Origin: a virus
DNA: 64,000 nucleotides
Virus record (IMG/VR): IMGVR_UViG_3300021963_000084
Coordinates: 1 to 64,000 of that record
Strand: one strand, 5' to 3'
The position numbers and the translations under genes were made by a program. The notes under the pieces are model-generated. The model had not been told where the DNA came from, searched no databases, and saw nothing but the letters and a program-made list of their open reading frames with translations. Of the stretch, positions 758-13,076 are shown piece after piece. How positions within the stretch are numbered: position 1 is the stretch's first letter; every line of letters starts with the position of its first letter.

Positions 758-1035
758 CTAATCCACTCCTACAAAAATACGAAGAACTCTACGGAAAGAA
801 GGAAGAACCAAAACCACAAAAGACACACACAGAAAAACTGAAAGAACTTCGGGATACTTCTACTATTCCAATCACAAAACTCACAACTCACGATATTGAT
901 AGTATTAACGATAGTTTCTTACAGATTGCTGAAAAGGTAAAAAACAAAGAGGCACAAGTAACTTCTATGAATATGGATTATGAACATCAAACTCGCACAC
1001 AAAGAATTACTTTTGAGGTTTTGACCAATTTTTGA
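754..1035 (+). CDS. hypothetical protein
   Basis: 93-aa ORF; stop codon lies inside dyad copy 1. Confidence 0.75.
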   Translation: MTNPLLQKYEELYGKKEEPKPQKTHTEKLKELRDTSTIPITKLTTHDIDSINDSFLQIAEKVKNKEAQVTSMNMDYEHQTRTQRITFEVLTNF

Positions 1036-1101
1036 ACTGGCACAGGGAGACCCCACAAGGTCTCCTATTGGTCTATAATACTCTTATAAGCAACCAAACC
1101 G
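1022..1101 (+). promoter_or_regulatory. cassette element 1: dyad + hairpin + -10 + leader
   Basis: TGACCAATT-tttg-AACTGGCAC (1022-1043), hairpin GGAGACC/GGTCTCC, TATAAT 1074-1079, leader ...CAACCAAACCG before ATG. Confidence 0.8.
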
Positions 1102-1428
1102 ATGATTGACCTCTCTCAACTGACCGAAGACCAAATCAACGAACTTCAACTCCAAATCCAAAAACATAAGGAAGAACAAAAACACAAAGATAATCTAAAA
1201 AATCTAAAAGGTTATAAAGTGACCTTTTATGTGAGGTTTGACCCTGAAAAGCATAAGAATGATATGCTTACGAATGATGGAAACCTTGATGAAGGACTTT
1301 TTACTGACTATTTGTGTGATAATCTTGTTACAGACCTGATTGAGGATTTGGGATTGTGTGGTTATGAGGATGTTAGTTATCCTAATGTGGAAGTAGCAAC
1401 CCAAAAAGATATTGAAGAGAAGTTTTGA
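1102..1428 (+). CDS. hypothetical protein
   Basis: 108-aa ORF directly after element 1. Confidence 0.8.
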   Translation: MIDLSQLTEDQINELQLQIQKHKEEQKHKDNLKNLKGYKVTFYVRFDPEKHKNDMLTNDGNLDEGLFTDYLCDNLVTDLIEDLGLCGYEDVSYPNVEVATQKDIEEKF

Positions 1429-1507
1429 GGACACCTGAAGAACTGGCACAGAGGCACTCCAAATGCCCCTGTGATGCCTTATAATACTCTCATAAGCAAC
1501 CAAACCG
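1428..1507 (+). promoter_or_regulatory. cassette element 2
   Basis: AGGACACCT-gaag-AACTGGCAC (1428-1449), TATAAT 1480-1485, leader nearly identical to element 1. Confidence 0.8.
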
Positions 1508-1699
1508 ATGACTGAAGAACAAATCCTACAACTTGCTGAAAATCACCTAACTCTTGAAAAGTGGGAGGACATTTGTTGGAAGGCAGATACTTTACAACTC
1601 TTAAAGTTTGCCCGAGAACTTTGTGATAAGTGCAAATGGGAAGGATATTATGAAGGTTATGAGATGTGTTCTATTGATATGGGAGATGAGAATGTATGA
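1508..1699 (+). CDS. hypothetical protein
   Basis: 63-aa ORF after element 2; first gene of a translationally coupled run. Confidence 0.75.
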   Translation: MTEEQILQLAENHLTLEKWEDICWKADTLQLLKFARELCDKCKWEGYYEGYEMCSIDMGDENV

Positions 1700-1935
1700 C
1701 TAAACTTTCTACACAAACACAAGCAATCATAGATGCTGCTGATGAAGTATTTTCTCACGGAGGAACAATTAGAGAGGGTTTTGCTGCTGCTCTTCGTGTT
1801 CTTGCTGATAATGTTGCCCCTGAAAATTATGCCTGTTTTTCGGGGCATAGAGAGTGGGATGAAGCACTTGAAACAAGAAATGAAAGTATTCGTGAGGCAA
1901 TTTTAGATATTGCTACTGAATTGGAGGCAATCTGA
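1696..1935 (+). CDS. hypothetical protein (probable paralogue of 2146-2358)
   Basis: 79 aa; shares an AxALRxL...xAILDxxxELE pattern with 2146-2358. Confidence 0.75.
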   Translation: MTKLSTQTQAIIDAADEVFSHGGTIREGFAAALRVLADNVAPENYACFSGHREWDEALETRNESIREAILDIATELEAI

Positions 1936-2153
1936 TGACTGACGAACAAAAACTCACACATCTCCTCAAAGTTCTCAAAAATTACGCAGAACAACCAACT
2001 TGTTATAATCTAAATCCTGATTATGAATACCCACACCACAGTTGGGATATTTTTGAAGATGGTTCTGATTATGGTGAGATTACCTTTGCCCGCACACTTT
2101 TAGAACAGATTGGTGTAGAGTTTAAGTATCCTTGTATGGAGGAAAATGACTAA
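1935..2153 (+). CDS. hypothetical protein
   Basis: 72-aa ORF; TGATG overlap with the previous gene. Confidence 0.75.
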   Translation: MTDEQKLTHLLKVLKNYAEQPTCYNLNPDYEYPHHSWDIFEDGSDYGEITFARTLLEQIGVEFKYPCMEEND

Positions 2154-2358
2154 CAAAAAAGAAGTAGCACAAAAAGTTTTTGAAGCCTTCTGGAAGAATG
2201 AACCACATCCGTGTAATGTTGATGGGTATGAGATTGCTAATGCTCTCCGTGAGTTAGTAGCAGAACTCCAATACTATCAATTTAAAGAGGATGTAGAGGA
2301 TATGGTGCTTGATGCCCGTGCTATACTTGATGTATGTGATGAGTTGGAGAACCTATGA
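2146..2358 (+). CDS. hypothetical protein (probable paralogue of 1696-1935)
   Basis: 70 aa; IANALREL...RAILDVCDELE. Confidence 0.75.
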   Translation: MTNKKEVAQKVFEAFWKNEPHPCNVDGYEIANALRELVAELQYYQFKEDVEDMVLDARAILDVCDELENL

Positions 2359-2531
2359 CTGAAACCAAATACCTAGTCAGTTGGAAATCAGACACTCAAC
2401 GCACTCGTAAAGAAGCATATTTTGATACTCTTTGGGGTGCTGAAACGTGGTATAATGAGAAACTCACAGAGGGTAGGAAACCAAAACTCTGGCAGGAAGA
2501 AACCACCACGATTTTGAGGAAACTGAAATGA
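2355..2531 (+). CDS. hypothetical protein (58 aa, below ORF-track cutoff)
   Basis: Translated by hand: MTETKYLVSWKS...ILRKLK; ATGA overlaps at both ends. Confidence 0.7.
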   Translation: MTETKYLVSWKSDTQRTRKEAYFDTLWGAETWYNEKLTEGRKPKLWQEETTTILRKLK

Positions 2532-2938
2532 CTGCTTGTAAATACTATGATTGTGGTTGGTGTTATGCTCCTGATGATGTAGAAACATCTGCCAGTTCTC
2601 AAAGTGCCTGTTTTGACTATGATTTTTGTCCTTATTTGAAATCACAAATGACTAAAGAAATTGACATCTCAAAAGTTCTCATAGAAGGAGACACCGCAAC
2701 CATTATGGGTGTGAAGTATAAGAGAGTAGAATCAGAAACAAAAACTCTTCGTGATGTGATTTATGATTGGTGGGATGATGTTTTTACGGAACAAACCTCT
2801 ATCAATGATTTGATTGATCGTATTGAAGCGTGGTTACCTAAAGAACAATCCGCACAAGGATCACAGAATGTCTATGTTGAATGTTCTGTAGAAGGTTTCA
2901 ACGATTGCCTCAACAAAATTAAACAAAATTTACGATGA
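2528..2938 (+). CDS. hypothetical protein with Cys-rich N-terminus
   Basis: 136 aa; CKYYDCGWC...C...C cluster followed by an internal Met at residue 41. Confidence 0.75.
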   Translation: MTACKYYDCGWCYAPDDVETSASSQSACFDYDFCPYLKSQMTKEIDISKVLIEGDTATIMGVKYKRVESETKTLRDVIYDWWDDVFTEQTSINDLIDRIEAWLPKEQSAQGSQNVYVECSVEGFNDCLNKIKQNLR

Positions 2939-3120
2939 CCCGATTTATTAAGAATCCTGATGAGATTGTCCTAGAGGACGTTCGTATGCTACACTATGAG
3001 ACGATGGAAGAGGGACGTGCCGTGTGGTTGGGAATCTATCTCAACAACGGTAAAATCTATCACCTTAACATCGGTGGTGACAATCTTTATGTGAACTATT
3101 CTGATGAATCAAATGACTAA
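2935..3120 (+). CDS. hypothetical protein
   Basis: 61-aa ORF; ATGA overlap. Confidence 0.7.
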   Translation: MTRFIKNPDEIVLEDVRMLHYETMEEGRAVWLGIYLNNGKIYHLNIGGDNLYVNYSDESND

Positions 3121-3430
3121 TCCACTGAAACTAAATGAAGATGCTCCCGCATTTTCTTATACACCTGCGGAACTATTCAACGTGATTATGTGCATCATCG
3201 CACATCCAAATCCAACACTCACGGAGCACGATAAAGCTCGTGCTATGGCAGTATTTCTGACCTTCGCAGATTACCTTGATAATTATACTGAGAGTGACAA
3301 CAACTTCGGTCATATCATCTACGAATCGGATTCTACCGATTTTGAGGGATATGTGCTACAATTACTAGGTAAGAAACCGCTGGATTTCTTCAAACCTGAC
3401 GTTGAAAAGATTCTCGATAGAATGAAATGA
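3113..3430 (+). CDS. hypothetical protein
   Basis: ORF track gives 3104-3430; second Met (MTNPLK) preferred as start. Confidence 0.7.
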   Translation: MTNPLKLNEDAPAFSYTPAELFNVIMCIIAHPNPTLTEHDKARAMAVFLTFADYLDNYTESDNNFGHIIYESDSTDFEGYVLQLLGKKPLDFFKPDVEKILDRMK

Positions 3431-3657
3431 ACAAGTTTGAATACACTCGTGCTGTTATTCTGGGTGCTGTCCTAGGTATGTCATCACTCTCTCTGGTGTA
3501 TATGATCAACGTAGCACTGGACACACAACCGAAAGAACCACCAAAACCACAATCTAATTTTGAAGTGGTGGATCATTATAAGGACTGTGATCTTCTACGC
3601 TGGTCTTATCGTCAACTCTCTGAATACAAATACGTTCTTCATTGCCCAAACAAATGA
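3427..3657 (+). CDS. small membrane-anchored protein
   Basis: Hydrophobic AVILGAVLGMSSLSLVYMI segment followed by a CDLL...HC domain. Confidence 0.7.
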   Translation: MNKFEYTRAVILGAVLGMSSLSLVYMINVALDTQPKEPPKPQSNFEVVDHYKDCDLLRWSYRQLSEYKYVLHCPNK

Positions 3658-3935
3658 AACTCCTAGATTACGAAACCTATGAGGATTATGGTAAGGAATG
3701 GTTTATTCAAGTCCTCAGATTTAAAAAGTTTGCCCTACTTGACCTGACAGTTCAATGGGATGAATATCCTGCAACCGAACTCTTTCCTTATATCATTCTC
3801 AGTGTCGGTGCTCATCATTTGTTAGGATTTACATTCAGATGGAAAGCATTTGAGATGAGTTGTGATATAATTGATGTAGCACCACGCAATCTAGAATGGT
3901 ATCGTAATCACGGAAAGTATGATGACATCGACTGA
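3654..3935 (+). CDS. hypothetical protein
   Basis: MKLLDYETYEDYG...; start overlaps the previous stop. Confidence 0.7.
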   Translation: MKLLDYETYEDYGKEWFIQVLRFKKFALLDLTVQWDEYPATELFPYIILSVGAHHLLGFTFRWKAFEMSCDIIDVAPRNLEWYRNHGKYDDID

Positions 3936-4113
3936 AACATTTACACAAACATCTCACGAACCTTATATCAGACATCATTATCGTCTGACAACAACTGAAG
4001 GGCAAGTCTATCAATTTGATAATTATGCTGATCTGATGCACCAATGGTTAGCACTTCCGAATACAATGGAGAGCATTATAGAGGTGATTGATGTGAAGAA
4101 AGGGTTTAAGTAA
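3919..4113 (+). CDS. hypothetical protein
   Basis: 64-aa ORF. Confidence 0.7.
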   Translation: MMTSTETFTQTSHEPYIRHHYRLTTTEGQVYQFDNYADLMHQWLALPNTMESIIEVIDVKKGFK

Positions 4114-4479
4114 ATGATTAACAACGGAAATGGTGAAACACTAGAACATCGTATGACCTATGATGATCTTATAAAAGGATTGAACTATGATCGTGATTCT
4201 GTTATTAGTGAATTGACACAGAGTAGAATTGACACAGAGATTCAATACAATGGATTAATTGAAGCACTTCATAGAATGTGTAAGTACAATGACATTGAAG
4301 TTGAACCTGAATTCTTTCTACAGGATGAACAAGTATTATATAATGAGTATTATGATGCTGTTAAAGGTTGGTATGAATCAAAGACCAATGAAGAAATTGT
4401 AGAGTTTTATCGTGTACACGAACCTTATGTGTTTGGTATGATCGATTCTCTGCAGGCATTATTTGATAAATCACCCTAA
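4114..4479 (+). CDS. hypothetical acidic protein
   Basis: 121-aa ORF; last gene before the non-coding block. Confidence 0.75.
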   Translation: MINNGNGETLEHRMTYDDLIKGLNYDRDSVISELTQSRIDTEIQYNGLIEALHRMCKYNDIEVEPEFFLQDEQVLYNEYYDAVKGWYESKTNEEIVEFYRVHEPYVFGMIDSLQALFDKSP

Positions 4480-4518
4480 TTAACGTATCAATTAAATGTT
4501 ATTTTAAATATAGTTGAG

Positions 4519-4552
4519 TTTTCCACACCCCTGTGGAAAAACCTGTGGAAAA
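4519..4552. promoter_or_regulatory. three TTTTCCACA (cyanobacterial DnaA-box-like) motifs
   Basis: TTTTCCACA at 4519-4527 (+); TGTGGAAAA at 4532-4540 and 4544-4552 (- strand copies). Confidence 0.55.
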
Positions 4553-4644
4553 CTATGATAATGGAGGATCTTATAGTCATCTAAGCCCGCAGTGTACCGA
4601 TTTGTCAAGCGATTGTATAAAATCTTCACAAAACCTCCACCCCC

Positions 4645-4673
4645 TTGACAAAACTCTCAAATGCCCCTATAAT
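4645..4673 (+). promoter_or_regulatory. sigma70-type early promoter
   Basis: TTGACA-N17-TATAAT, perfect consensus. Confidence 0.9.
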
Positions 4674-4736
4674 GAACTCTGTGAGGGTTCAAAGGAACAA
4701 TAAGGTCCTCTGATACCCTCCGATACCAGAAACCCC

Positions 4737-4765
4737 TTGACAACCCTCATAATGCCCTCTATAAT
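4737..4765 (+). promoter_or_regulatory. sigma70-type early promoter (tandem duplicate)
   Basis: TTGACA-N17-TATAAT; flanks CCCCTTGACA...ATGCC..TATAATGA match the 4645 copy. Confidence 0.9.
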
Positions 4766-4789
4766 GATTCTGTTCGGTTCTGAGAAACT

Positions 4790-4947
4790 CTTATGATTTG
4801 AGAAAATCTTAAAAATCTCAGAAATCTTAAATCTGTGGTTTTTATAAAAATCTCAAAAACTTTAAAATTAAGATTTTAATGAATTCTATAATTCTATGAA
4901 TATCTTATAAGTTATAATTATAAGATACTTATAGAGTTATTATATAA
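4790..4947. repeat. AT-rich block with AAATCT(T/C)A iterations and palindromes
   Basis: Several AAATCTTAAA/AAATCTCA units; palindrome TATCTTATAA...TTATAAGATA; homologous to 6719-6870. Confidence 0.7.
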
Positions 4948-5030
4948 GGGACTATGGTGAAATTGGTAAACACAACAGACTTAAAATCTGTCGGATCTTA
5001 TCCTTGTCGGTTCAAGTCCGACTAGTCCTA
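4948..5030 (+). tRNA. trnL-UAA: tRNA-Leu (anticodon UAA), intron-less, CCA not encoded
   Basis: Acceptor stem GGGACTA/TAGTCCT, D loop with TGGTA, anticodon arm ACAGA-CTTAAAA-TCTGT, long variable arm, T arm GTCGG-TTCAAGT-CCGAC, discriminator A. Confidence 0.95.
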
Positions 5031-5032
5031 TT

Positions 5033-5112
5033 GTGACAGTCTTTGAACTGTCACAGAGTACTTGACTTCTAAATACAAGTGCTTTATAGTTAACAAGTAA
5101 ACAAACGATTCA
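5033..5112 (+). promoter_or_regulatory. cassette element 3 (most symmetric dyad; abuts the tRNA 3' end)
   Basis: TGTGACAGT-ctttga-ACTGTCACA (5032-5055); TTGACT 5062-5067, N17, TATAGT 5085-5090. Confidence 0.85.
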
Positions 5113-5271
5113 ATGTCTTCAACCAAATTTGAATACTATCTAGAGACTGCTGAAGGACTTACTCAAGAAGGGTATGTTACAGCAAATAACCATCAGAATG
5201 CTATCAAAAAAGTAAAAAAAGAGAATAAGAAATTCAAAATTACTTATTTGGACGTTCAACCTCTGTACTGA
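5113..5271 (+). CDS. hypothetical protein (52 aa)
   Basis: Hand translation MSSTKFEYYLETAEG...VQPLY; starts 22 nt after the -10 box. Confidence 0.7.
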   Translation: MSSTKFEYYLETAEGLTQEGYVTANNHQNAIKKVKKENKKFKITYLDVQPLY

Positions 5272-5272
5272 T

Positions 5273-5404
5273 ATGGACAAGGAATTCTACAATCTCACCG
5301 AAGAAGCATATAAAATCCTCTGTGAAGAAGGGGATGTGCTTGATGTTTTGGATGAAATCGAGTATGATGATTATGAATTCACTGGAGACTTTGACTATGA
5401 TTGA
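5273..5404 (+). CDS. very acidic 43-aa peptide
   Basis: MDKEFYNLTEEAYKILCEEGDVLDVLDEIEYDDYEFTGDFDYD. Confidence 0.6.
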   Translation: MDKEFYNLTEEAYKILCEEGDVLDVLDEIEYDDYEFTGDFDYD

Positions 5405-5633
5405 CACTTACGTTGTTGTTGAAGGTGTTGCTTACTGGGAAAAGGATAGCAACTATTATACCACATCAGTAAATGCTGACAACACTATTGACTGGAAGAA
5501 TGCTACAAAGATTGATATTAAATCCTCTGACGGACCTGATATCGGCACTGTACATTCAATCTATGATACACTACAGTTCATCAAATCATCACAACGACGA
5601 CTACTTAATGAAACCCGAAAACTTTCTGTCTGA
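5397..5633 (+). CDS. hypothetical protein
   Basis: MIDTYVVVEGVAYWEKD...; internal start of track ORF 5322-5633. Confidence 0.7.
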   Translation: MIDTYVVVEGVAYWEKDSNYYTTSVNADNTIDWKNATKIDIKSSDGPDIGTVHSIYDTLQFIKSSQRRLLNETRKLSV

Positions 5634-5751
5634 CAGTACTTTAGACCTGCTCAGTGATAAAGCAGATGCTGAAGCATTTGCTATGGATATCGAGCAGAAA
5701 GCAGCAGCATTAGAAATCACAGTTGATTACTATATGCAAGAGTTTATGTGA
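5608..5751 (+). CDS. cyanophage-type small hypothetical protein
   Basis: ...IEQKAAALEITVDYYMQEFM; TGA stop lies inside dyad 4. Confidence 0.7.
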   Translation: MKPENFLSDSTLDLLSDKADAEAFAMDIEQKAAALEITVDYYMQEFM

Positions 5752-5830
5752 CAGTTTCTGAACTGTCCACTGATTGCCCCACTGGTCACCCTGGTGGGGT
5801 ATCTTATAAGGGTCGTCAGGAATTCAATCG
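5748..5830 (+). promoter_or_regulatory. cassette element 4
   Basis: GTGACAGTT-tctg-AACTGTCCA (5748-5769), CCCCAC/GTGGGG hairpin, TATCTT 5800-5805. Confidence 0.75.
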
Positions 5831-6004
5831 ATGAATTACTTCAACACCAACATCATTAAGAATCACGATGACCACCTGTACCTGAACAACAGTATGGCAG
5901 AGTGTTATGATTTCTGCCTGAGTGTTGCTGAACAGTTTGATAATATTGCCGATCAGGCATGGTGGTATGATCAGAAACAAGGTCATATCTGCTACGACGT
6001 ATGA
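5831..6004 (+). CDS. hypothetical protein (57 aa)
   Basis: Hand translation MNYFNTNIIK...GHICYDV. Confidence 0.65.
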   Translation: MNYFNTNIIKNHDDHLYLNNSMAECYDFCLSVAEQFDNIADQAWWYDQKQGHICYDV

Positions 6005-6063
6005 TGAATGGGAATGTGTTTGCCCTAAAGTTACACACAATGCCCTCTGATTTTTATTTTAAA

Positions 6064-6318
6064 ATGACCGTGACTTCTCCTATTGCTCGTATGATCACTG
6101 CTGAAGAATCGAGTGCAATTGCATTCGTTAAGGTGGAAGATCTGAACGTGACTGTTGCTTATCAGTCGAATCCTGATACTCAGTATACCTACACTGCTGA
6201 TGCTGAATTTGCACAGCAACTTGTGCAAGTGCTGGAGGCAGAGGATCTGGCAGGCATTTCTCTGGGTGGTATGATTACCGATGCCCGCCGTGTGGGGGAC
6301 CTGCAGCAGACGGTCTGA
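6064..6318 (+). CDS. KTSC-like domain protein
   Basis: SSAIAFV...VTVAYQSNP..QYTY...SLGGMI resembles the KTSC pattern SSxI...LxVxF...YxY...SxG. Confidence 0.55.
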   Translation: MTVTSPIARMITAEESSAIAFVKVEDLNVTVAYQSNPDTQYTYTADAEFAQQLVQVLEAEDLAGISLGGMITDARRVGDLQQTV

Positions 6319-6393
6319 GAAGTGTCACAAGGGGGGTTGCAATGCCCCCCACCCCCCTGGTATATTACATTTGTTCCTGAGGGATTCACCCCC
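6307..6393 (+). promoter_or_regulatory. cassette element 5
   Basis: CAGACGGTC-tgag-AAGTGTCAC (6307-6328), TTGCAA-N18-TATATT (6337-6366), GGGGG/CCCCC hairpin. Confidence 0.75.
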
Positions 6394-6720
6394 ATGAGAA
6401 AGATCGAACGTCTGATGAATGCTGCCATCACCCGTGAGGTTGATTGGAAGTGCTCTAACACTGAGGTTCGTAATGAGGATGGTGTGAGCAAAGTGTTCCT
6501 GCACGGCAATCTGATTGCTGAGATTGGTGATACTTTCCTCCGTCTCTTTGATGGTGGTTGGCAATCCAACACCACCAAATCCCGTTTGAATGCTATTCTT
6601 CGTGAGCACGGTGCTGGTAGTGAGTGTGTGTTTCAAAAGCAGTGGCAATGGTTCATTACCATGAATACTGACAGGGGTATGGAAACTGTTCCTTTTCGTA
6701 GTTCTATGAAACTGGGGTAA
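6394..6720 (+). CDS. conserved phage hypothetical protein
   Basis: MRKIERLMNAAI...VFLHGNLIAEI...DGGWQSNTTKSRLNAIL; start placed after the cassette leader. Confidence 0.8.
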   Translation: MRKIERLMNAAITREVDWKCSNTEVRNEDGVSKVFLHGNLIAEIGDTFLRLFDGGWQSNTTKSRLNAILREHGAGSECVFQKQWQWFITMNTDRGMETVPFRSSMKLG

Positions 6721-6870
6721 ATCTTAAAATTTGAGATTCTGTAGAAATCTTAAAAACTACAGAATCTCATTTTTTATGAAAATCTTAAAAGTTTAAAAAT
6801 TAAGAATTTCATAAAAACTTTAATATTAATAATACTATAAGAGTATTATAATAATAACTCTTATAGTATA
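6719..6870. repeat. second AT-rich block with AAATCTTAAAA iterations and hairpins
   Basis: Three AAATCTTAAAA units; hairpins TGAGATTCTGTAG/CTACAGAATCTCA and TACTATAAGAGT/ACTCTTATAGTA. Confidence 0.7.
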
Positions 6871-7058
6871 AACAATGTCCTTTGATTTACTAATTGATTA
6901 TGTCTAAGCAAGTAATGATTTCTATGCTGAATCAAGCAAACAATGGTCAAGAATTGCTTACTATTCTTGACAGTCTCACTGTTGAAGATAACAGCAGTGA
7001 GTATAAAGAACCTACTAGTGAGTTTATCGACTTCTGATATCAATTGTCAAGTGTACTA

Positions 7059-7142
7059 GTGACACTTTGACAAGTGGCACAGGGTCAGTTGCAGAGCATT
7101 TGATTCTGTGCCATACTACATTTGTTGAATTGAAAAACACCA
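7059..7142 (+). promoter_or_regulatory. cassette element 6
   Basis: GTGACACTT-tgac-AAGTGGCAC (7059-7080), TTGCAG-N17-CATACT (7089-7117). Confidence 0.8.
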
Positions 7143-7364
7143 ATGATCAAACCTTTCATCAACACTTTGCTGTTCAACATTGCCACCATTGTTGCTATTG
7201 TGGTGGGCATTGTATCTTATACTTATCGTGCTGCCCGAGTTTGGTATAATGAGGGTGGACGTGAGTTTCTAATCAACACCGCTGCTAAGTTTGCTGCTGG
7301 TGTTAACAAACTGTCTGAGCGGGTATACTACACTCTGGAGGATGCAGAGACTGTTACTGTGTGA
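7143..7364 (+). CDS. small membrane protein
   Basis: Transmembrane-like LLFNIATIVAIVVGIVSY; TGA stop inside dyad 7. Confidence 0.75.
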   Translation: MIKPFINTLLFNIATIVAIVVGIVSYTYRAARVWYNEGGREFLINTAAKFAAGVNKLSERVYYTLEDAETVTV

Positions 7365-7441
7365 CAGTTGTAGAGGTGGCATAGTATTCTCCCAAATGAC
7401 AGGATGCTGTGCCTATAATGACTTCAGTTCAATTCACCACG
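7361..7441 (+). promoter_or_regulatory. cassette element 7
   Basis: GTGACAGTT-gtag-AGGTGGCAT (7361-7382), TATAAT 7414-7419. Confidence 0.8.
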
Positions 7442-7585
7442 ATGCAACTAACATTTGAGCAGGTAGATGCCCTGCTGTCACTCATTGAGTTTCACGATGA
7501 TTGGGATGAAGTGAGTGAGCACGTTGGCACAAATGTTGCCGAACTTTATGACATTCTGACTGAACTTCGTGATGAACTTGCTTGA
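7442..7585 (+). CDS. acidic 47-aa peptide
   Basis: Hand translation MQLTFEQVDALLSLIEFHDDWDEV...LRDELA. Confidence 0.7.
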   Translation: MQLTFEQVDALLSLIEFHDDWDEVSEHVGTNVAELYDILTELRDELA

Positions 7586-7586
7586 C

Positions 7587-7760
7587 ATGAATCGCTCTGA
7601 ACTTCAGGATCGAATGGTTCAACAAATGTTGGACGACATGGATCTTAAAACTGTGATGTGCCTATGTTATGATTATCTGATGGAGGGTTACGATAAGTAT
7701 TCAGATGCAGAATTGACTGAAGAGGTTAATCACTACTATCCCGAACTTCTGGAGAATTGA
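7587..7760 (+). CDS. acidic hypothetical protein
   Basis: MNRSELQDRMVQQMLDDMDL...YYPELLEN. Confidence 0.7.
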   Translation: MNRSELQDRMVQQMLDDMDLKTVMCLCYDYLMEGYDKYSDAELTEEVNHYYPELLEN

Positions 7761-7762
7761 TT

Positions 7763-7981
7763 ATGCAATTCCTGCTCACACATGTCACGTTTGATTGTTA
7801 TCTTGATGATGAGGATTGGACTGAAAAAGATCAAGATGAAACCGAACAACATTTGCCCAAAGCATACATCGGCACTGTTTGGCAAGCAGATGATGAAGAG
7901 GATTTGTTAGAGCAAATTAGTTCTAAATCTGGTTGGTGTGTTGATAGTTACGATTACACTATTATGCCCGCTAAAATGTAA
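7763..7981 (+). CDS. acidic hypothetical protein
   Basis: MQFLLTHVTFD...WQADDEEDLLEQISSKSGWCV. Confidence 0.7.
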   Translation: MQFLLTHVTFDCYLDDEDWTEKDQDETEQHLPKAYIGTVWQADDEEDLLEQISSKSGWCVDSYDYTIMPAKM

Positions 7982-8066
7982 CAAACTGGGCGGCCGCTTC
8001 GCTGCCCCTTCCCTCCCCTCCCGCCCTCTAGGTTAAGGGCAGAGTTGGGCAGAGTCAAGGGGCAGA

Positions 8067-8150
8067 GTGCCAGTTTGAGAGGTGGCACAGCAGGGGTCGC
8101 AGTGGGGTTTGACCCGTGCCTATAATGACTGCAGTTCAAACGACAGACCT
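8067..8150 (+). promoter_or_regulatory. cassette element 8
   Basis: GTGCCAGTT-tgag-AGGTGGCAC (8067-8088), TATAAT 8121-8126. Confidence 0.8.
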
Positions 8151-8282
8151 ATGTGGGATGAGATTCAAGACATGCCTGGGGAGATTTTTGATCTGGAGGA
8201 GTGGGGTCACCCTATGGCAGAGTGCTGGCACGACATGGAGTTGAATGGGACAGATGAAGAGGTGGCACAGCAACCCGCCTGA
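8151..8282 (+). CDS. acidic 43-aa cyanophage-type peptide
   Basis: MWDEIQDMPGEIFD...; its 3' end reads through dyad 9. Confidence 0.7.
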   Translation: MWDEIQDMPGEIFDLEEWGHPMAECWHDMELNGTDEEVAQQPA

Positions 8283-8329
8283 CCCCCACCCTGACCCCTT
8301 ATACTGATCTCATACCAAACGAAACGACC
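8247..8329 (+). promoter_or_regulatory. cassette element 9
   Basis: GGGACAGAT-gaag-AGGTGGCAC (8247-8268), TATACT 8300-8305. Confidence 0.8.
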
Positions 8330-8497
8330 ATGACCCGTTACACCGTCTACGTTCCCTCTGCCCCCCACGAGAGCGAGAGCACCCATGATCTCGATCGTGC
8401 CTGGGATCTGTGCCTCTCCCTCTCTGAAGATTTCGGGTATGCACAGGTGAAGCAAGATGGTATGATCATCGGAGACTACACGAACGGGGGGATGTGA
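8330..8497 (+). CDS. hypothetical protein (55 aa)
   Basis: Hand translation MTRYTVYVPSAPHE...AWDLCLSLSEDFGYAQV...; TGA stop inside dyad 10. Confidence 0.7.
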   Translation: MTRYTVYVPSAPHESESTHDLDRAWDLCLSLSEDFGYAQVKQDGMIIGDYTNGGM

Positions 8498-8575
8498 CAC
8501 TCTAGGAACTGACACACGGGGTCACCACAGACCCCACCCTGACCCCTTATACTGATCTCAGTTCACACAACACCA
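8494..8575 (+). promoter_or_regulatory. cassette element 10
   Basis: GTGACACTC-tagg-AACTGACAC (8494-8515), TATACT 8548-8553. Confidence 0.8.
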
Positions 8576-9001
8576 ATGACCGTGACCCTGACCGCTTCCT
8601 ACCGTGAGATGCTCGCTGCTGACACTGTTAGCAAGATCGATGAGTTGCTCGATGAGAACTATTGCCTCGATGACATTCTGAAGTTCATCGATGAGTATAA
8701 CGAGCGTATGTTCGTTGATAACTATGAGGAGTATGTTCGTTGTGGTGAAGCAATCGGTTATGATGCCGTTGATGCTTATGCTAACGAGAACGGCATCGAT
8801 AACATCGACGGTTGCGATGAACGCTATCGTGGTGTGTATGAGAGCACTGCAGATTTCGCTGAAGAATACTACAGCGAACTGTACGATGTGCCCTGTGCTC
8901 TGGTAGTAGATTGGGAGGCAACGTGGGACACTTCGCTGCGGTACGATTTCACCGCTTGTGAGGCAGGATACCGCACCTGCCACATTTTCAGCGATTACTA
9001 G
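8576..9001 (+). CDS. ardA: ArdA-like anti-restriction (DNA-mimic) protein
   Basis: ERYRGVYESTADFAEEYYSELYDVPCALVVDWEATW matches the ArdA C-terminal YxGxYxSxxDFAEE...P..L...DxE pattern; about 34 D/E versus 9 K/R. Confidence 0.65.
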   Translation: MTVTLTASYREMLAADTVSKIDELLDENYCLDDILKFIDEYNERMFVDNYEEYVRCGEAIGYDAVDAYANENGIDNIDGCDERYRGVYESTADFAEEYYSELYDVPCALVVDWEATWDTSLRYDFTACEAGYRTCHIFSDY

Positions 9002-9080
9002 GACGGTTCAGGGGGTGGCACACGCTGCCCCCACCGACCCCCACCTGACCCCTTATACTGTTCTCAGTTCAGACAACCCT
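9000..9080 (+). promoter_or_regulatory. cassette element 11
   Basis: AGGACGGTT-cagg-GGGTGGCAC (9000-9021), TATACT 9054-9059. Confidence 0.8.
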
Positions 9081-9290
9081 ATGGGATACCCCATCAACAC
9101 CAGCAACAGCACCGCCATCGACACGCTGACGGTCAACCCCATCACGGGCACGGTTCGGGTCCGCTTCCAGTCCTACCCTACCGTCCGCCCCTACAGGATG
9201 AAGGCATCCCGCCGTGAGATTCTCGCCCTGCTGTGGGACAGCAACCGCTCCCTAGGACGGTGGGTGAACTGGCACTGTGTCGCTGCCTGA
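9081..9290 (+). CDS. KTSC-like domain protein
   Basis: NSTAIDTLTVNPITGTVRVRFQS...Y...LALL...SLGRWVN, a KTSC-like pattern. Confidence 0.6.
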   Translation: MGYPINTSNSTAIDTLTVNPITGTVRVRFQSYPTVRPYRMKASRREILALLWDSNRSLGRWVNWHCVAA

Positions 9291-9335
9291 CCCCCACCTG
9301 ACCCCTTATACTGATCTCATCAGCAACGGACCCCG
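9254..9335 (+). promoter_or_regulatory. cassette element 12
   Basis: AGGACGGTG-ggtg-AACTGGCAC (9254-9275), TATACT 9307-9312. Confidence 0.8.
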
Positions 9336-9512
9336 ATGCAAACTCTCAAAGCAACCGCCATCGCCCTGCTAGTCATCATACTGGCAACCGCTGGTTACGT
9401 TGCTTTGCTTCGCAATGGCAATGCCCGCATCGAAGCGAAGTGCCAGGCATCAGGTGGGCAGGTGCTTATGACACCTGGTCAAGTGTCCCGCTGCCTGCTC
9501 CCTGTTCGCTGA
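9336..9512 (+). CDS. small membrane-anchored protein (58 aa)
   Basis: MQTLKATAIALLVIILATAGYVALL...C...C. Confidence 0.7.
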   Translation: MQTLKATAIALLVIILATAGYVALLRNGNARIEAKCQASGGQVLMTPGQVSRCLLPVR

Positions 9513-9545
9513 TCTGCTACAATACTCTCACACGCAACCGATCCG
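9468..9545 (+). promoter_or_regulatory. cassette element 13
   Basis: ATGACACCT-ggtc-AAGTGTCCC (9468-9489), TACAAT 9518-9523. Confidence 0.65.
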
Positions 9546-9707
9546 ATGCGAATCGAAGTCCGTTACCAGACCCCCTACAACGCTTGTGAGTGGCGGTCAC
9601 AGTGGTTCCCCACCCTGGCAGAGGCAGAGCGTATGGTAGAATTCTACCGCTCCTGTGGGTCACCCTCCCACATCGCCCCTTCCTCCCTCGCTCAGTTCGA
9701 TCGCTGA
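9546..9707 (+). CDS. cyanophage-type hypothetical protein (53 aa)
   Basis: MRIEVRYQTPYNACEWRSQWFPTLAEAERMVEFYRSCGSP... Confidence 0.7.
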   Translation: MRIEVRYQTPYNACEWRSQWFPTLAEAERMVEFYRSCGSPSHIAPSSLAQFDR

Positions 9708-9711
9708 TCTT

Positions 9712-9852
9712 ATGGCAAACCTCATCCGCCTCGCTCTGGTCGCTGCCATCTGCCTGATTTTCTCTCAGACCCTAGGATCGGTGCTCGCCCTCGCCCAGAC
9801 CCTTGACCGTGTGACAGCAGACAAGGTGGCACAGATCGCTGCCCTAGAGTGA
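9712..9852 (+). CDS. small membrane/secreted peptide
   Basis: MANLIRLALVAAICLIFSQ... Confidence 0.6.
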   Translation: MANLIRLALVAAICLIFSQTLGSVLALAQTLDRVTADKVAQIAALE

Positions 9853-9894
9853 CCGCCGACCCTGTAGACTGATCACATCGAAACGAAACGACCG
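9811..9894 (+). promoter_or_regulatory. cassette element 14
   Basis: GTGACAGCA-gaca-AGGTGGCAC (9811-9832), TAGACT 9865-9870. Confidence 0.75.
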
Positions 9895-10065
9895 ATGACC
9901 ATCACCGAAGCAAACCAGATCTGGTTCGATTGCTACCAGAGCACCGACTACACCCTCTGGAGCAAGTACACCAGCGACCAGCGCCTGCAGGCAATCCAGA
10001 CCCGTGACCGCCACGCCAACGGCGAGGGACAGTGGGGCATCTGGAACATCAGCGACCGCCACTGA
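9895..10065 (+). CDS. hypothetical protein (56 aa)
   Basis: Hand translation MTITEANQIWFDCYQS...QWGIWNISDRH. Confidence 0.7.
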   Translation: MTITEANQIWFDCYQSTDYTLWSKYTSDQRLQAIQTRDRHANGEGQWGIWNISDRH

Positions 10066-10108
10066 GGCGGATCGCCTGTAGACTTCTCTCAGTTCAAACG
10101 ACACACCG
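10026..10108 (+). promoter_or_regulatory. cassette element 15
   Basis: GGGACAGTG-gggc-ATCTGGAAC (10026-10047), TAGACT 10079-10084. Confidence 0.65.
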
Positions 10109-10306
10109 ATGGCACTGTACAACATCGCAACCGATCTCAAGACCCGCGAGACTGTGTGGGTCATGACCAATGTGGTGAAGGGTCGCCCCCAGTTGAACTC
10201 CCACCGCGAGGGCACCGCAGGTCGCTCGCTCGCTGCCTCTGGTGTTGACGGACTGCCCGCCTGGGAGTGGGCAACCATGCACACCAACTATCGGGGGCGG
10301 GGTTGA
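10109..10306 (+). CDS. hypothetical protein
   Basis: 65-aa ORF after element 15. Confidence 0.7.
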   Translation: MALYNIATDLKTRETVWVMTNVVKGRPQLNSHREGTAGRSLAASGVDGLPAWEWATMHTNYRGRG

Positions 10307-10331
10307 CCCCTGACCCCTGACCCTGTAGAAT
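10303..10331 (+). promoter_or_regulatory. sigma70-type promoter without dyad (last cassette)
   Basis: TTGACC-N17-TAGAAT followed by the same type of A/C-rich leader ...ACCGATG. Confidence 0.75.
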
Positions 10332-10357
10332 TCTCTCAAGTCAACCGACACCGACCG

Positions 10358-10552
10358 ATGGCACTGAACACCCTCCCCGCTCCGATGACCGCCGCCGAAC
10401 TCACCGCTAAGATCGAGGCAGGCGAATTCAAGATCAAGCGTCTGCCGACCCGCCGCCCTCGCAAGGCAGATCTGGTGATGACCCGTGTGATGGGCAGCAG
10501 CGGGTCAGCACGCTTTATGGCAGACAACGACCACCAGACCCGCTGGCAGTGA
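10358..10552 (+). CDS. basic hypothetical protein
   Basis: 64 aa; KIKRLPTRRPRK. Confidence 0.7.
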   Translation: MALNTLPAPMTAAELTAKIEAGEFKIKRLPTRRPRKADLVMTRVMGSSGSARFMADNDHQTRWQ

Positions 10553-10553
10553 C

Positions 10554-10697
10554 CAGCACGGCAGTTGCCCCGCCCCGTGCGGGGTCGCCGCCCCGCCGCC
10601 GTGTTGAAAAGTTAGGGTCCTTCCTAACCTACAAAGGTTCCCAAACGCCCATAAGGTACTCTGTTTATAAAAAAAATTTTTCCAGAAAATTTTTACC
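10554..10697. other. structured GC-rich to A/T-tract junction
   Basis: Nested stems CAGCACGGC/GCCGTGTTG and GCCCCGC/GCGGGGT; hairpin GTTAGG/CCTAAC; palindromic A/T tracts. Confidence 0.6.
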
Positions 10698-12767: not shown

Positions 12768-13076
12768 ATGGCAAGAGCAGTAGGAACAATCGGACACAAA
12801 TATATTAATCGTTGTAGCACTCCAGTTCAGGGAGAAGGATCTCCTAATGTTTTTGTGAATGGTAAAGCAGTCGGCACGATTGGAACTAAAACATTACCTT
12901 ATCAAGAAATTGTTCCCTGTAAAGAATGTTGTCGCACACATACAGGAACTGTTTTAGAAGGATCTCCCACAGTTTTTGTAAATGGAAAAGCACTGCTGAG
13001 AATTGGTGATAAACATTTAGGTATCACTGGTCAACACGTTTTATTAGAAGGTTCTCCGAACGTATTTGCATCATAA
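12768..13076 (+). CDS. gp5.4: PAAR-domain baseplate spike tip protein (T4 gp5.4-like)
   Basis: Three EGSPNVF/EGSPTVF(VNGK) repeats, Cys/His candidate metal ligands, LRIGD. Confidence 0.85.
   Translation: MARAVGTIGHKYINRCSTPVQGEGSPNVFVNGKAVGTIGTKTLPYQEIVPCKECCRTHTGTVLEGSPTVFVNGKALLRIGDKHLGITGQHVLLEGSPNVFAS

Follow-up and report, generated by a model that had tools for sequence, protein, structure and literature searches.

The window analyzed here, a 64,000-nt stretch of a phage contig (positions 1 to 64,000 of IMG/VR record IMGVR_UViG_3300021963_000084), carries 15 copies of a 22-nt imperfect inverted repeat, referred to below as the box. Each box is followed by a -10 hexamer and an ATG, and the 15 repeats are real promoter units ahead of small-gene groups. 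The units are listed below with their weight-matrix scores in bits.

1022..1104, plus strand: unit 1, box 1022-1043, -10 TATAAT 1074-1079, ATG 1102; 17.4 bits; strong spacer hairpin (-13.9 kcal, z -4.1), upstream stop codon within the box
1428..1510, plus strand: unit 2, box 1428-1449, -10 TATAAT 1480-1485, ATG 1508; 32.7 bits, the highest of all copies; shares 95% identity with an S-SRM01 unit and 88% with an S-PM2 unit
5033..5115, plus strand: unit 3, box 5033-5054, -10 TATAGT 5085-5090, ATG 5113; 24.8 bits; 8 of 9 arm positions paired, -35-like TTGACT at 5064-5069, start 3 nt downstream of a tRNA-Leu
5748..5833, plus strand: unit 4, box 5748-5769, -10 TATCTT 5800-5805, ATG 5831; 20.1 bits; spacer hairpin of -15.6 kcal, stop codon TGA at box position 2
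6307..6396, plus strand: unit 5, box 6307-6328, -10 TATATT 6361-6366, ATG 6394; 13.4 bits, the weakest copy; spacer hairpin of -16.0 kcal, gene at ATG 6394 of the Kyano_Gp96 family
7059..7145, plus strand: unit 6, box 7059-7080, -10 CATACT 7112-7117, ATG 7143; 28.3 bits
7361..7444, plus strand: unit 7, box 7361-7382, -10 TATAAT 7414-7419, ATG 7442; 20.1 bits; stop codon TGA at box position 2
8067..8153, plus strand: unit 8, box 8067-8088, -10 TATAAT 8121-8126, ATG 8151; 23.2 bits; opens an island of 56% G+C
8247..8332, plus strand: unit 9, box 8247-8268, -10 TATACT 8300-8305, ATG 8330; 22.8 bits; box within the upstream gene, whose stop codon is 8280-8282
8494..8578, plus strand: unit 10, box 8494-8515, -10 TATACT 8548-8553, ATG 8576; 24.6 bits; its gene has a weak ArdA-like anti-restriction match (E 3e-4, family score 21.9 bits, below the 27-bit cut-off)
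9000..9083, plus strand: unit 11, box 9000-9021, -10 TATACT 9054-9059, ATG 9081; 17.2 bits; only 2 of 9 arm positions complementary
9254..9338, plus strand: unit 12, box 9254-9275 within the upstream gene, -10 TATACT 9307-9312, ATG 9336; 22.8 bits
9468..9548, plus strand: unit 13, box 9468-9489 within the upstream gene, -10 TACAAT 9518-9523, ATG 9546; 21.6 bits; the copy with a 28-nt gap
9811..9897, plus strand: unit 14, box 9811-9832 within the upstream gene, -10 TAGACT 9865-9870, ATG 9895; 19.6 bits
10026..10111, plus strand: unit 15, box 10026-10047 within the upstream gene, -10 TAGACT 10079-10084, ATG 10109; 14.2 bits

All 15 box positions had been proposed in an earlier sequence-only reading of this DNA, and all were verified. 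The consensus offered there held in part: allowing up to three mismatches, it gave 13 matches over both strands and found 8 of the 15 places (0.19 matches expected; 13 was matched or exceeded in 0 of 100 shuffles), but the other seven sites (1022, 1428, 6307, 9000, 9254, 9468 and 10026) were too degenerate for this search. The weight matrix was built from 186 sites on other contigs, leaving out the window sequence and the sites bearing the 20-mer used to fetch the contigs. The 15 window sites scored 13.4-32.7 bits against it, and a scan of the whole 82,459-nt contig returned exactly these 15 sites as plus-strand matches of at least 10 bits; the mean over 50 block shuffles was 0.46 matches at 12 bits or more. 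The box is real, but its description as a 9-4-9 dyad overstates the pairing, as only 2-8 of the 9 arm positions are complementary in any copy and the right arm is far better conserved than the left.

The nearly fixed spacing described earlier was confirmed, with a box to -10 gap of 30 nt in four copies, 31 in five, 32 in five and 28 in one, and with 21-27 nt separating the -10 from the ATG in all 15 units. The upstream stop codon starts at box positions -1 to 12 in seven copies, as had also been described, and these overlaps arise because the GTGACA arm contains TGA. The stop codon lies 34-43 nt past the box start in five further copies (8247, 9254, 9468, 9811 and 10026), so that these five boxes are located within the coding sequence of the upstream gene, and the motif is kept there despite the coding sequence around it. 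Each unit in the 5-10 kb array is followed by one to four genes, in line with the earlier count, and the copy at 1428 by 12 genes before another box. The -35 hexamer is weak or absent, the sequence logo showing only a partial TTGA at the right place. Fold computation placed a hairpin, distinct from the box and varying in sequence, within the spacer of 8 of the 15 copies, about half; these hairpins are G+C-rich, are often followed by a T run, and probably terminate or stabilise the upstream transcript. Between the -10 and the ATG lies a leader of about 24 nt that is conserved and has no Shine-Dalgarno sequence. The RNA contigs placed on the window did not show the transcription start.

The promoter unit is common to other phages and not private to the present one. 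We found 13 sites within the first 24.8 kb of S-PM2, nine within 31 kb of S-SRM01, at least seven in Syn9 (gap 29-30 nt, ahead of gp55-gp90) and eight units in P-HM2, a phage of Prochlorococcus MED4 (gap 28-31 nt). The exact 20-mer used to fetch the contigs occurs in at least 120 IMG/VR stretches. The matrix survey of phages covered 1.08 Mb, including S-PM2, S-SRM01 and 120 loci from IMG/VR contigs among the matches listed; the 120 loci gave 554 unique matrix matches, 317 of which have a -10 at 20-44 nt, with a gap of 30 nt in 164 and 31 nt in 116.

The same 186 sites were used to ask how the arms vary together. The Watson-Crick fraction equals the expectation from independent columns at eight of the nine arm pairs, and is lower at pair 7/16 (0.17 observed, 0.37 expected) because positions 7 and 16 tend to be identical. 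The commonest bases are A with G at pair 4/19 and C with C at pair 7/16, and no compensatory changes between the arms were seen across these sites. Folded by itself, the box reaches -5 kcal or better in only 5 of 15 copies. Given the poor pairing, the lack of arm covariation and the five boxes inside coding sequence, the box is most likely read as DNA and not as a hairpin, its sequence being conserved rather than its pairing.

We compared the phage units with the promoters of 29 genes of Cyano-1 (RF01701, the Yfr2 family) from 15 picocyanobacterial genomes. Nine of the 29 host promoters have an arm in the GTGmCAGTT orientation that begins 51-53 nt ahead of the -10, and the phage left arm begins 52-53 nt ahead of its own. 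With a background of 0.00058 arms per position, the binomial P is 1e-18 when the promoters are treated as independent, though the genes are related. A 13-mer, AGGACAGTTGAAG, is common at the arm position to several host promoters and the freshwater phage consensus. The left arm of that consensus, AGGACACTT, differs from the host arm. The everted palindrome AACTGGCAC-N-GTGCCAGTT occurs in seven host promoters. No arm was found at -51 to -53 in 20 of the 29 promoters, and none of at least 8 bits anywhere in 8 of the 29. The arms point inward with a 4-nt spacer in the phage and outward with 1 nt between them in the host element, so a rigid dimer would need a different binding mode for each. The inward dyad is not enriched in five host genomes (0-1 place per genome; the control gave 1-7 per strand), and thus no host promoter demonstrates the exact phage arrangement at work.

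The host element can be linked to a protein. According to Lambrecht 2018 (PMC6191309), CGRE1 is a 21-22 nt element located at -55 to -57 and, in a single promoter, at -20. In that study CGRE1 pulled down PMM1637, the protein shifted the element in EMSA and increased reporter expression, and PlmA-driven induction is tied to nitrogen starvation and high light. We infer that CGRE1 is the everted palindrome of the host promoters from four descriptors in that text (its length, the spacing of 13-14 nt between GTTG flanks, and the two positions), although the centre given there as close to GTGATCAC fits the palindrome poorly. In the part of the literature naming CGRE1 or PMM1637 that was covered, no mention of phage promoters was found. 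Neither the contig nor any of Syn9, S-PM2 and S-SRM01 (0 of 3) yielded a GntR-family gene, so a reader of the GntR type would be encoded by the host.

We propose, with a probability of roughly 70%, that the units are promoter units of T4-like cyanophages in which the box serves as the landing site of a regulator. The proposed order is the 22-nt box, a spacer of 30-31 nt, the -10, the leader and the ATG of small accessory genes in the early region, which would be expressed early. Transcription would start at a conserved A seven nt past the -10, placing the box at about -65 to -44. There it would act as double-stranded DNA, bound by a winged-helix regulator working as a dimer, which would bring in host RNA polymerase and stand in for the -35 contact. 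The candidate reader is the host GntR-family protein PlmA (PMM1637), and the phage box shares the 9-nt half-site of CGRE1, the PlmA-responsive palindrome of yfr2 promoters. PlmA itself is the best candidate because the half-site and its register to the -10 are shared with CGRE1, although we put its identity forward only tentatively. The differing arm arrangement and the host promoters that lack the arm speak against the regulator-site explanation. In addition, dependence on nitrogen starvation and high light would be odd for genes expected to fire at every infection, and the tendency of positions 7 and 16 to hold identical bases is not what a symmetric dimer would lead one to expect. The sequence-only reading had offered two interpretations, and they fared differently. 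The first, in which a dimeric activator would bind upstream of the -35 position, is favoured because of the fixed distance to the -10, the weak -35, the conservation of sequence and not pairing, and the Yfr2 half-site in register; the second, the capture of genes by recombination, found no support.

Rather than host PlmA, the reader of the box may be a phage protein, either an activator carried in the virion and acting at entry or an early protein responsible for later shut-off. This would agree with the inward dyad and 4-nt spacer, which are typical of phages, not enriched in the five host genomes and unlike the arm arrangement of CGRE1. Furthermore, most genes in the region belong to no known family, 7 of the 10 largest having no Pfam match at E 0.01, and such family-less genes could include an unrecognised DNA-binding protein. 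We nevertheless regard a phage reader as unlikely: no candidate protein was found, a GntR-type gene was not found in any of the three complete relatives, the position from -65 to -44 is a poor location for a repressor, and the host-shared half-site in register is hard to explain if a host protein plays no role.

Another explanation is that the units matter mainly as patches of homology where ordinary recombination would swap, delete or insert small genes, as has been proposed for the promoter-early stem-loops (PeSLs) of T4-type phages (Arbiol 2010), described as stem-loop and promoter repeats among small variable genes (Comeau 2014, PMC4122927). The present units, repeats of roughly 85 nt that combine a stem-loop with a promoter, are situated among family-less small genes in a variable region, and synteny with S-SRM01 and another contig breaks at unit 1428. 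Joints ending in units were also seen in metagenome contigs of three runs, for example from 8574 to 9546 and from 9834 back to 8116, each in two runs, and from 7753 back to 6320, the last with an intervening box arm. These joints have short sides (20-45 letters at 90% likeness), however, a kind that frequently reflects other organisms or repeats, and repeated units by themselves attract such matches. Ends of homology blocks are no commoner where a unit is present (46 at 15 junctions with a box, 36.8 expected) than where it is absent (108 at 23 junctions, 19.8 expected), and the 12-gene stretch at 1508-4479 is equally mosaic without a unit. Recombination also leaves unexplained both the 30-31 nt phasing to the -10 and the conservation from marine Prochlorococcus phages to freshwater Synechococcus phages. 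We thus consider it improbable that exchange is the main role, but the units may possibly act as substrates for homologous recombination as a side effect, as proposed for PeSLs.

It is very improbable that the box works at the RNA level, with the 9-4-9 repeat forming a hairpin in the upstream transcript that serves its termination, processing or stabilisation. Its position at the 3' end of the upstream gene and the three copies that fold at -7.7 to -10.1 kcal (5033, 5748 and 8067) would suit this role, but 10 of the 15 boxes fold more weakly than -5 kcal, two of them not at all, no T run follows the box, the arms lack compensatory changes, and the role of terminator is already filled by the separate spacer hairpin. 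The integron-like reading, in which the dyad is an attC-like site of cassette capture, is close to refuted already. The resemblance consists of short genes bounded by imperfect inverted repeats, 7 of the 15 repeats having a stop codon within or next to them. No tyrosine recombinase (Phage_integrase family match) was found in the contig (consistent with the earlier remark that the window encodes no recombinase) or in the three complete relatives, a promoter at constant spacing comes with every unit, five boxes lie inside coding sequence, the TGA of the arm accounts for the stop overlaps, sequence and not fold is conserved, and block ends fall at gene junctions with and without a box.

Among known systems, integron cassettes with attC share with the present units the short genes, the imperfect repeats between them and the nearby stop codons, and differ in that no integrase was found here, the present units carry promoters of their own and it is their sequence, not their fold, that is conserved. 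PeSLs resemble our units as compact terminator-plus-promoter elements that lie between small variable genes of a hyperplastic region and end at the next start codon. They have sigma-70 -35 and -10 hexamers with the stem-loop upstream of the -35, whereas the present stem-loop lies between box and -10 in the place of the -35, the conserved box has no PeSL counterpart, and breakpoints are not concentrated at our units. In addition, PeSLs were judged sparse in the S-PM2 region matching the window (Puxty 2015, PMC4503421).

In layout, the units can be compared to the late promoters of P2-like phages, since a partial dyad would again lie about 55 nt upstream of the start with poor -35 hexamers. The sites of the Ogr/Delta family activators are centred near -55 in those promoters, and their reader is an activator that contacts RNA polymerase. 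Sequence and phages are unrelated and the genes are late, not early, making this an analogy of layout only.

The sequence-only reading did not recognise the dyad as a known operator, which is fair, although the element is widespread among T4-like cyanophages and has reportedly been described before. Doron and co-workers are reported to have described in 2016 a "novel early-gene regulatory element" in Syn9, and such elements to be abundant and conserved in these phages. The number of IMG/VR stretches with the 20-mer agrees with this reported abundance. Syn9 itself has the present box, the gap of about 30 nt and a -10 before the small genes gp55-gp90, and S-PM2, S-SRM01 and P-HM2 likewise carry all three, so the published element is presumably identical to ours. 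The present contig comes from an uncultured estuarine or marine phage.

The closest host counterpart is CGRE1 of Prochlorococcus and marine Synechococcus. Both elements use the 9-nt half-site AACTGGCAC / GTGCCAGTT, are about 21-22 nt long and lack a good -35, and the promoter-proximal arm of CGRE1 stands in the register of the phage left arm. According to Lambrecht et al. 2018 (PMC6191309), the CGRE1 protein PlmA is an activator. The two differ in the orientation and spacing of their arms and in what they serve, the host element lying ahead of small-RNA genes and the phage element ahead of protein genes.

The scan of the contig with a weight matrix, a check proposed in the sequence-only reading and run here with an independent matrix, returned exactly the 15 boxes listed there (1022 to 10026) as the matches at or above 10 bits on the plus strand, with scores of 13.4-32.7 bits, and all 15 positions were confirmed on the sequence. 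Because a matrix made from that same list of sites would be circular, we built this matrix from 186 sites of other contigs, leaving out the sites that carry the 20-mer used to fetch the loci; 106 of the 292 promoter-linked sites contain this 20-mer and were excluded from both the covariation and the matrix tests. Block shuffles of the contig gave a mean of 0.46 matches at or above 12 bits with the independent matrix, the shuffles in this test and in the hairpin and covariation tests preserving mononucleotide composition only. The earlier consensus, allowing up to three mismatches, matched 8 of the 15 sites (13 matches on both strands compared to 0.19 expected, with 13 or more in 0 of 100 shuffles), and the other seven boxes are more degenerate relative to it.

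The geometry proposed for the units, each consisting of a box, a spacer, a -10 hexamer and a leader to an ATG (~85 nt), also held. A -10-like hexamer is present in all 15 copies, 28-32 nt downstream of the box, and the distance is nearly fixed (30 nt in four copies, 31 in five, 32 in five and 28 in one). From the -10 to the ATG there are 21-27 nt in the 15 copies, and the stop codon of the upstream gene lies in or against the box in seven; in the G+C-rich part, five copies have their box within the upstream gene, with the stop 34-43 nt past the box start. The dyad stood only in part: an inverted repeat is present, but its symmetry is not strong, with pairing at only 2-8 of the 9 positions per copy, and the right arm and the next A are conserved far better than the left arm. 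Three further features of the region, one of them a unit without a recognizable box, are as follows (units are named by the start of their box).

4948-5030, tRNA-Leu(taa)
8576-9001, ArdA-like gene of 141 aa behind unit 8494, a weak match (E 3e-4, 21.9 bits, under the 27-bit cut-off)
10329-10360, sixteenth unit, with no recognizable box, whose ATG at 10358 is preceded by the same -10 (TAGAAT) and leader

The matrix scan of the contig found no recognizable box at the expected place in the sixteenth unit. The gene at 8576-9001 matches genes of S-SZBM1 and S-PM2 that are annotated as anti-restriction protein. Eight of the 15 units lie in an island (8000-10600) with a G+C content of 56%, compared to 28-45% in the remaining window; the spacers of the island units have a common C-rich segment of ~30 nt ending in TATACT, and the island genes have their matches, at 69-78%, in the G+C-rich section of the ‘ORFanage’ of S-PM2 (20-23 kb in that genome). 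Upstream of the tRNA-Leu, a gene-free stretch holds two promoters that match the sigma-70 consensus perfectly (TTGACA, 17 nt, TATAAT), at 4645-4675 and 4736-4767, neither with an upstream box, which are a second promoter class in the region. In two further gene-free and A+T-rich stretches (4780-4945 and 6720-6880), the word ‘atcttaaaa’ recurs and there are long palindromes built around TATAAG/TTATA; these stretches may be promoters of the late type or sequence resembling an origin.

The contig, of which the window is the first 64 kb, is linear and comes from an uncultured virus; it is 82,459 nt in length and estimated to be about 45% complete. The first 12 kb of the window show patchy matches to T4-like cyanophages, the best being to S-SRM01, a phage of freshwater Synechococcus (88.8% over 8% of the query), and to the marine S-PM2 (87.1% over 6%); beyond these 12 kb, the contig codes for structural-type proteins of very large size and carries late genes of the T4-like kind. 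Six very long ORFs (1427 to 3363 aa) between 13076 and 63506 occupy most of the window beyond the accessory region and presumably encode fibre or baseplate-type structural proteins, and the ORF at 13076-17359 has a strong G-over-C skew. Three DNA runs labelled marine or estuary contain 88-97% of the sampled window words, compared to small shares in freshwater runs, and one of the three may be the source of the contig. One RNA run (X24, share 0.06) contains eight short contigs of relatives (90-99% likeness), each lying partly on the window, from which start, end and strand are not readable and which speak neither for nor against transcription.

The box is conserved across T4-like cyanophages. 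S-PM2 has the same combination of box, gap, -10 and leader 13 times within its initial 24.8 kb, S-SRM01 has it nine times in a stretch of 31 kb, and P-HM2, a phage of Prochlorococcus MED4, carries eight units. Between 40 and 62 kb of Syn9, at least seven boxes, lying 29-30 nt from a -10-like hexamer, precede genes from gp55 to gp90, and the box pattern gave 28+22 matches in the entire Syn9 genome compared to 4+10 for a control pattern. A loose core pattern gave 15 matches in P-SSM2 and 14 for its control. One exact 20-mer of the box occurs in at least 120 IMG/VR stretches. Among 120 loci from these IMG/VR contigs, which together with S-PM2 and S-SRM01 amount to 1.08 Mb, there were 554 unique matrix matches, and 317 of these have a good -10 at 20-44 nt, the gap being 30 in 164 and 31 in 116; the remaining 237 are mostly the same partly symmetric sites read on the opposite strand. 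The logo of the related units displays conserved box positions 3-9 and 14-23, then a weak TTGA as the only trace of a -35 (clear in one window copy, at 5064-5069), the -10, and a conserved A seven nt on, which is likely the transcription start. Assuming that transcription starts at this A, the box spans about -65 to -44.

A novel regulatory element of early genes, abundant in T4-like cyanophages, was reportedly described in Syn9 and P-TIM40 by Doron and colleagues in 2016. Syn9 carries the box described here, which is presumably this element. Searches of the literature for the motif string or for descriptive text gave nothing useful, and the accessible portions of PMC5931967, PMC6414667, PMC6359870, PMC5780444, PMC11726456 and PMC5312081 do not describe the motif. 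The units of the window are a new instance of a widespread and reportedly published cyanophage promoter type, and nothing new in kind.

We evaluated whether the box acts as double-stranded DNA or through pairing of its arms. Alone, the box folds at -5 kcal or better in only five of 15 copies. Across the 186 sites, the Watson-Crick fraction at the nine arm pairs equals the independent-column expectation except at pair 7/16, where it is 0.17 compared to 0.37 expected, because both positions tend to carry the same base: C occurs with C 118 times and G with G 30 times, and the bases are complementary 32 times (186 sites of related viral loci). Such identical-base covariation is unexpected for a symmetric site. 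At pair 4/19, the most frequent combination is A with G, and the box motif is kept also where it is coding sequence. Because the letters rather than the pairing are conserved, even in coding sequence, a double-stranded DNA site fits the data and a role as RNA or cruciform is disfavoured. The spacer between the box and the -10, on the other hand, forms a stable hairpin of variable sequence in eight of the 15 window copies (z at or below -2 against shuffles) and in 47% of the 292 related units, often followed by a T run; this hairpin probably ends or stabilizes the upstream transcript. It takes the position of the -35 hexamer, which makes sense if a protein bound upstream replaces the -35 contact.

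We tested whether the box resembles host Yfr2 promoters, using named picocyanobacterial genomes reached via the psbD gene of Syn9. In 15 genomes (marine Synechococcus, Cyanobium, freshwater Synechococcus and Prochlorococcus), there were 29 genes of Cyano-1 (RF01701), presumably the Yfr2 family. With a half-site matrix made from the 30 arms of the window boxes, arms at or above 8 bits were found in 21 of the 29 host promoters. In nine of the 29, an arm in the GTGmCAGTT orientation begins 51-53 nt upstream of the -10, and the phage left arm begins 52-53 nt upstream of its own -10. Across these host loci, such arms have a background rate of 0.00058 per position, giving a nominal binomial P of 1e-18, which is overstated because the host promoters are related to each other. 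At the 51-53-nt place, several of these host promoters carry AGGACAGTTGAAG, a 13-mer that they share with the consensus of the freshwater phages. Seven of the 29 contain a palindrome of 21 nt that is made of the same arms turned outward, with the promoter-proximal arm at the 51-53-nt place or adjoining the -10.

In its length, in the 13-nt distance between its GTTG flanks and in the two positions that it takes, the 21-nt host palindrome fits the accessible text description of CGRE1, the element of host yfr2 promoters. In the available text of Lambrecht 2018 (PMC6191309), PMM1637 (PlmA), of the GntR family, binds CGRE1 and activates yfr2 through it, and the accessible part of a follow-up paper places CGRE1 nowhere else in the MED4 genome. 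The half-site sequence is the same in CGRE1 and the phage box, and the promoter-proximal arm of CGRE1 and the phage left arm share their register to the -10; the arms of CGRE1, however, face outward with 1-2 nt between them, whereas those of the phage box face inward across a 4-nt spacer. Judged from these sequence comparisons, the phage box looks like a rebuilt host site, with the half-site kept and the second arm relocated and turned round, and PlmA is the obvious candidate for its reader. Three points count against simple identity of box and CGRE1: the arm layouts differ, 20 of 29 host promoters have no arm at the 51-53-nt place, and host genomes are without the phage layout, the five that were scanned showing no enrichment of its inward-facing dyad core. 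Three palindromic host matches, in three marine Synechococcus genomes, were set aside as unrelated; they represent a single orthologous palindrome between genes (GACACTTG-N4-AGTGTC type), which directly adjoins a ribosome-binding site, lacks a -10 at 30 nt and has no Rfam match. No GntR-family gene was found in the contig (about 45% complete), Syn9, S-PM2 or S-SRM01. Within the accessible literature on CGRE1 and PMM1637 that we searched, the link between the phage box and a PlmA site is not in print. Of the two readings offered from the sequence, that of an activator site is the better, given the conservation of letters rather than pairing and the half-site in common with promoters that carry a PlmA site, with PlmA as a candidate reader.

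We tentatively propose, at a probability of roughly 0.3, that T4-like cyanophages borrow the host PlmA to start infection and that their early promoter is a rebuilt CGRE1. PlmA is a GntR-family regulator tied to the PII-PipX network of nitrogen and energy sensing. In the proposed mechanism, PlmA would normally serve the Yfr2 small-RNA promoters only and would be recruited by the phage at the start of infection; the promoter-proximal arm of CGRE1 would have stayed in place and a second, inward-facing arm would have been added. Early phage expression would thereby be wired to the carbon/nitrogen and light status of the host, and the hairpin between box and -10 would allow a single 85-nt unit to end one group of genes and begin another. 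Much of the picocyanobacterial population of oceans and lakes is killed by T4-like cyanophages, which, to our knowledge, are without the T4 proteins that reprogramme transcription. The half-site and register shared with PlmA-dependent host promoters make it testable at the bench, with a protein that is known and can be purified, what switches on the first phage genes. With PlmA as the reader, early infection would hinge on nutrient and light signalling in the host, and hosts might then become phage-resistant by losing or altering plmA.

A less likely role of the units is homologous exchange between them, in the manner of the promoter-early stem-loops (PeSLs) of T4-type phages, which could operate as a side effect. 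Contigs from three metagenome runs contain alternative joins with ends in units; one of them, in two runs, links the unit 8494 leader with the ATG at 9546, and another, also in two runs, returns from just past box 9811 to the unit 8067 -10. The joins come from assembled contigs only, the sequence that matches on their sides measures a mere 20-45 letters at 90% likeness, and repeats such as these units draw short matches of their own accord; we rate the joins as compatible with PeSL-like exchange and no more. The alignment to relatives, another check proposed earlier, placed breakpoints at every gene junction, with or without a box. Comparing the first 11 kb of the window with 122 loci of relatives gave 116 homology blocks of at least 150 nt with 214 ends, distributed as 46 at the 15 junctions with a unit (36.8 expected by length), 108 at the 23 junctions without one (19.8 expected) and 60 elsewhere (157.3 expected). 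The pile-up of ends at every junction indicates that genes are shuffled singly and that the box is not needed for shuffling.

The second reading offered from the sequence, an integron-like recombination site, did not survive: an integrase was not found, the breakpoints are not box-specific and the sequence rather than the fold is conserved. Tyrosine recombinase (PF00589) gave no match in the contig (about 45% complete) or in any of three complete relatives, and the control genomes all matched. For an element so common in cyanophages, the integron idea can thus be set aside. A sigma-54 site was rejected, since TGGCAC in the right arm resembles a -24 element but no -12 element follows (and we know of no sigma-54 in cyanobacteria). 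A CRP/NtcA-type site also fits poorly, as spacing and bases disagree with the consensus sites and a center near -54.5 matches neither class.

In integrons, the fold of attC is conserved over its sequence, whereas in the phage box the sequence is conserved and the pairing is not, with no covariation; integron cassettes are without promoters and depend on one common promoter, whereas each phage unit carries a -10 of its own, set at a fixed distance. PeSLs, as far as the accessible text of Comeau 2014 (PMC4122927) describes them, resemble the units in being terminator-plus-promoter modules between small variable genes. A PeSL has sigma-70-like -35 and -10 elements at 17-nt spacing, whereas the units have a -10 in 15 of 15 copies and a weak -35. 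The stem-loop of a PeSL lies just upstream of its promoter, whereas the hairpin of the units (eight of 15) lies inside the promoter, between box and -10, and the upstream box is a further feature of the units that sets them apart from PeSLs.
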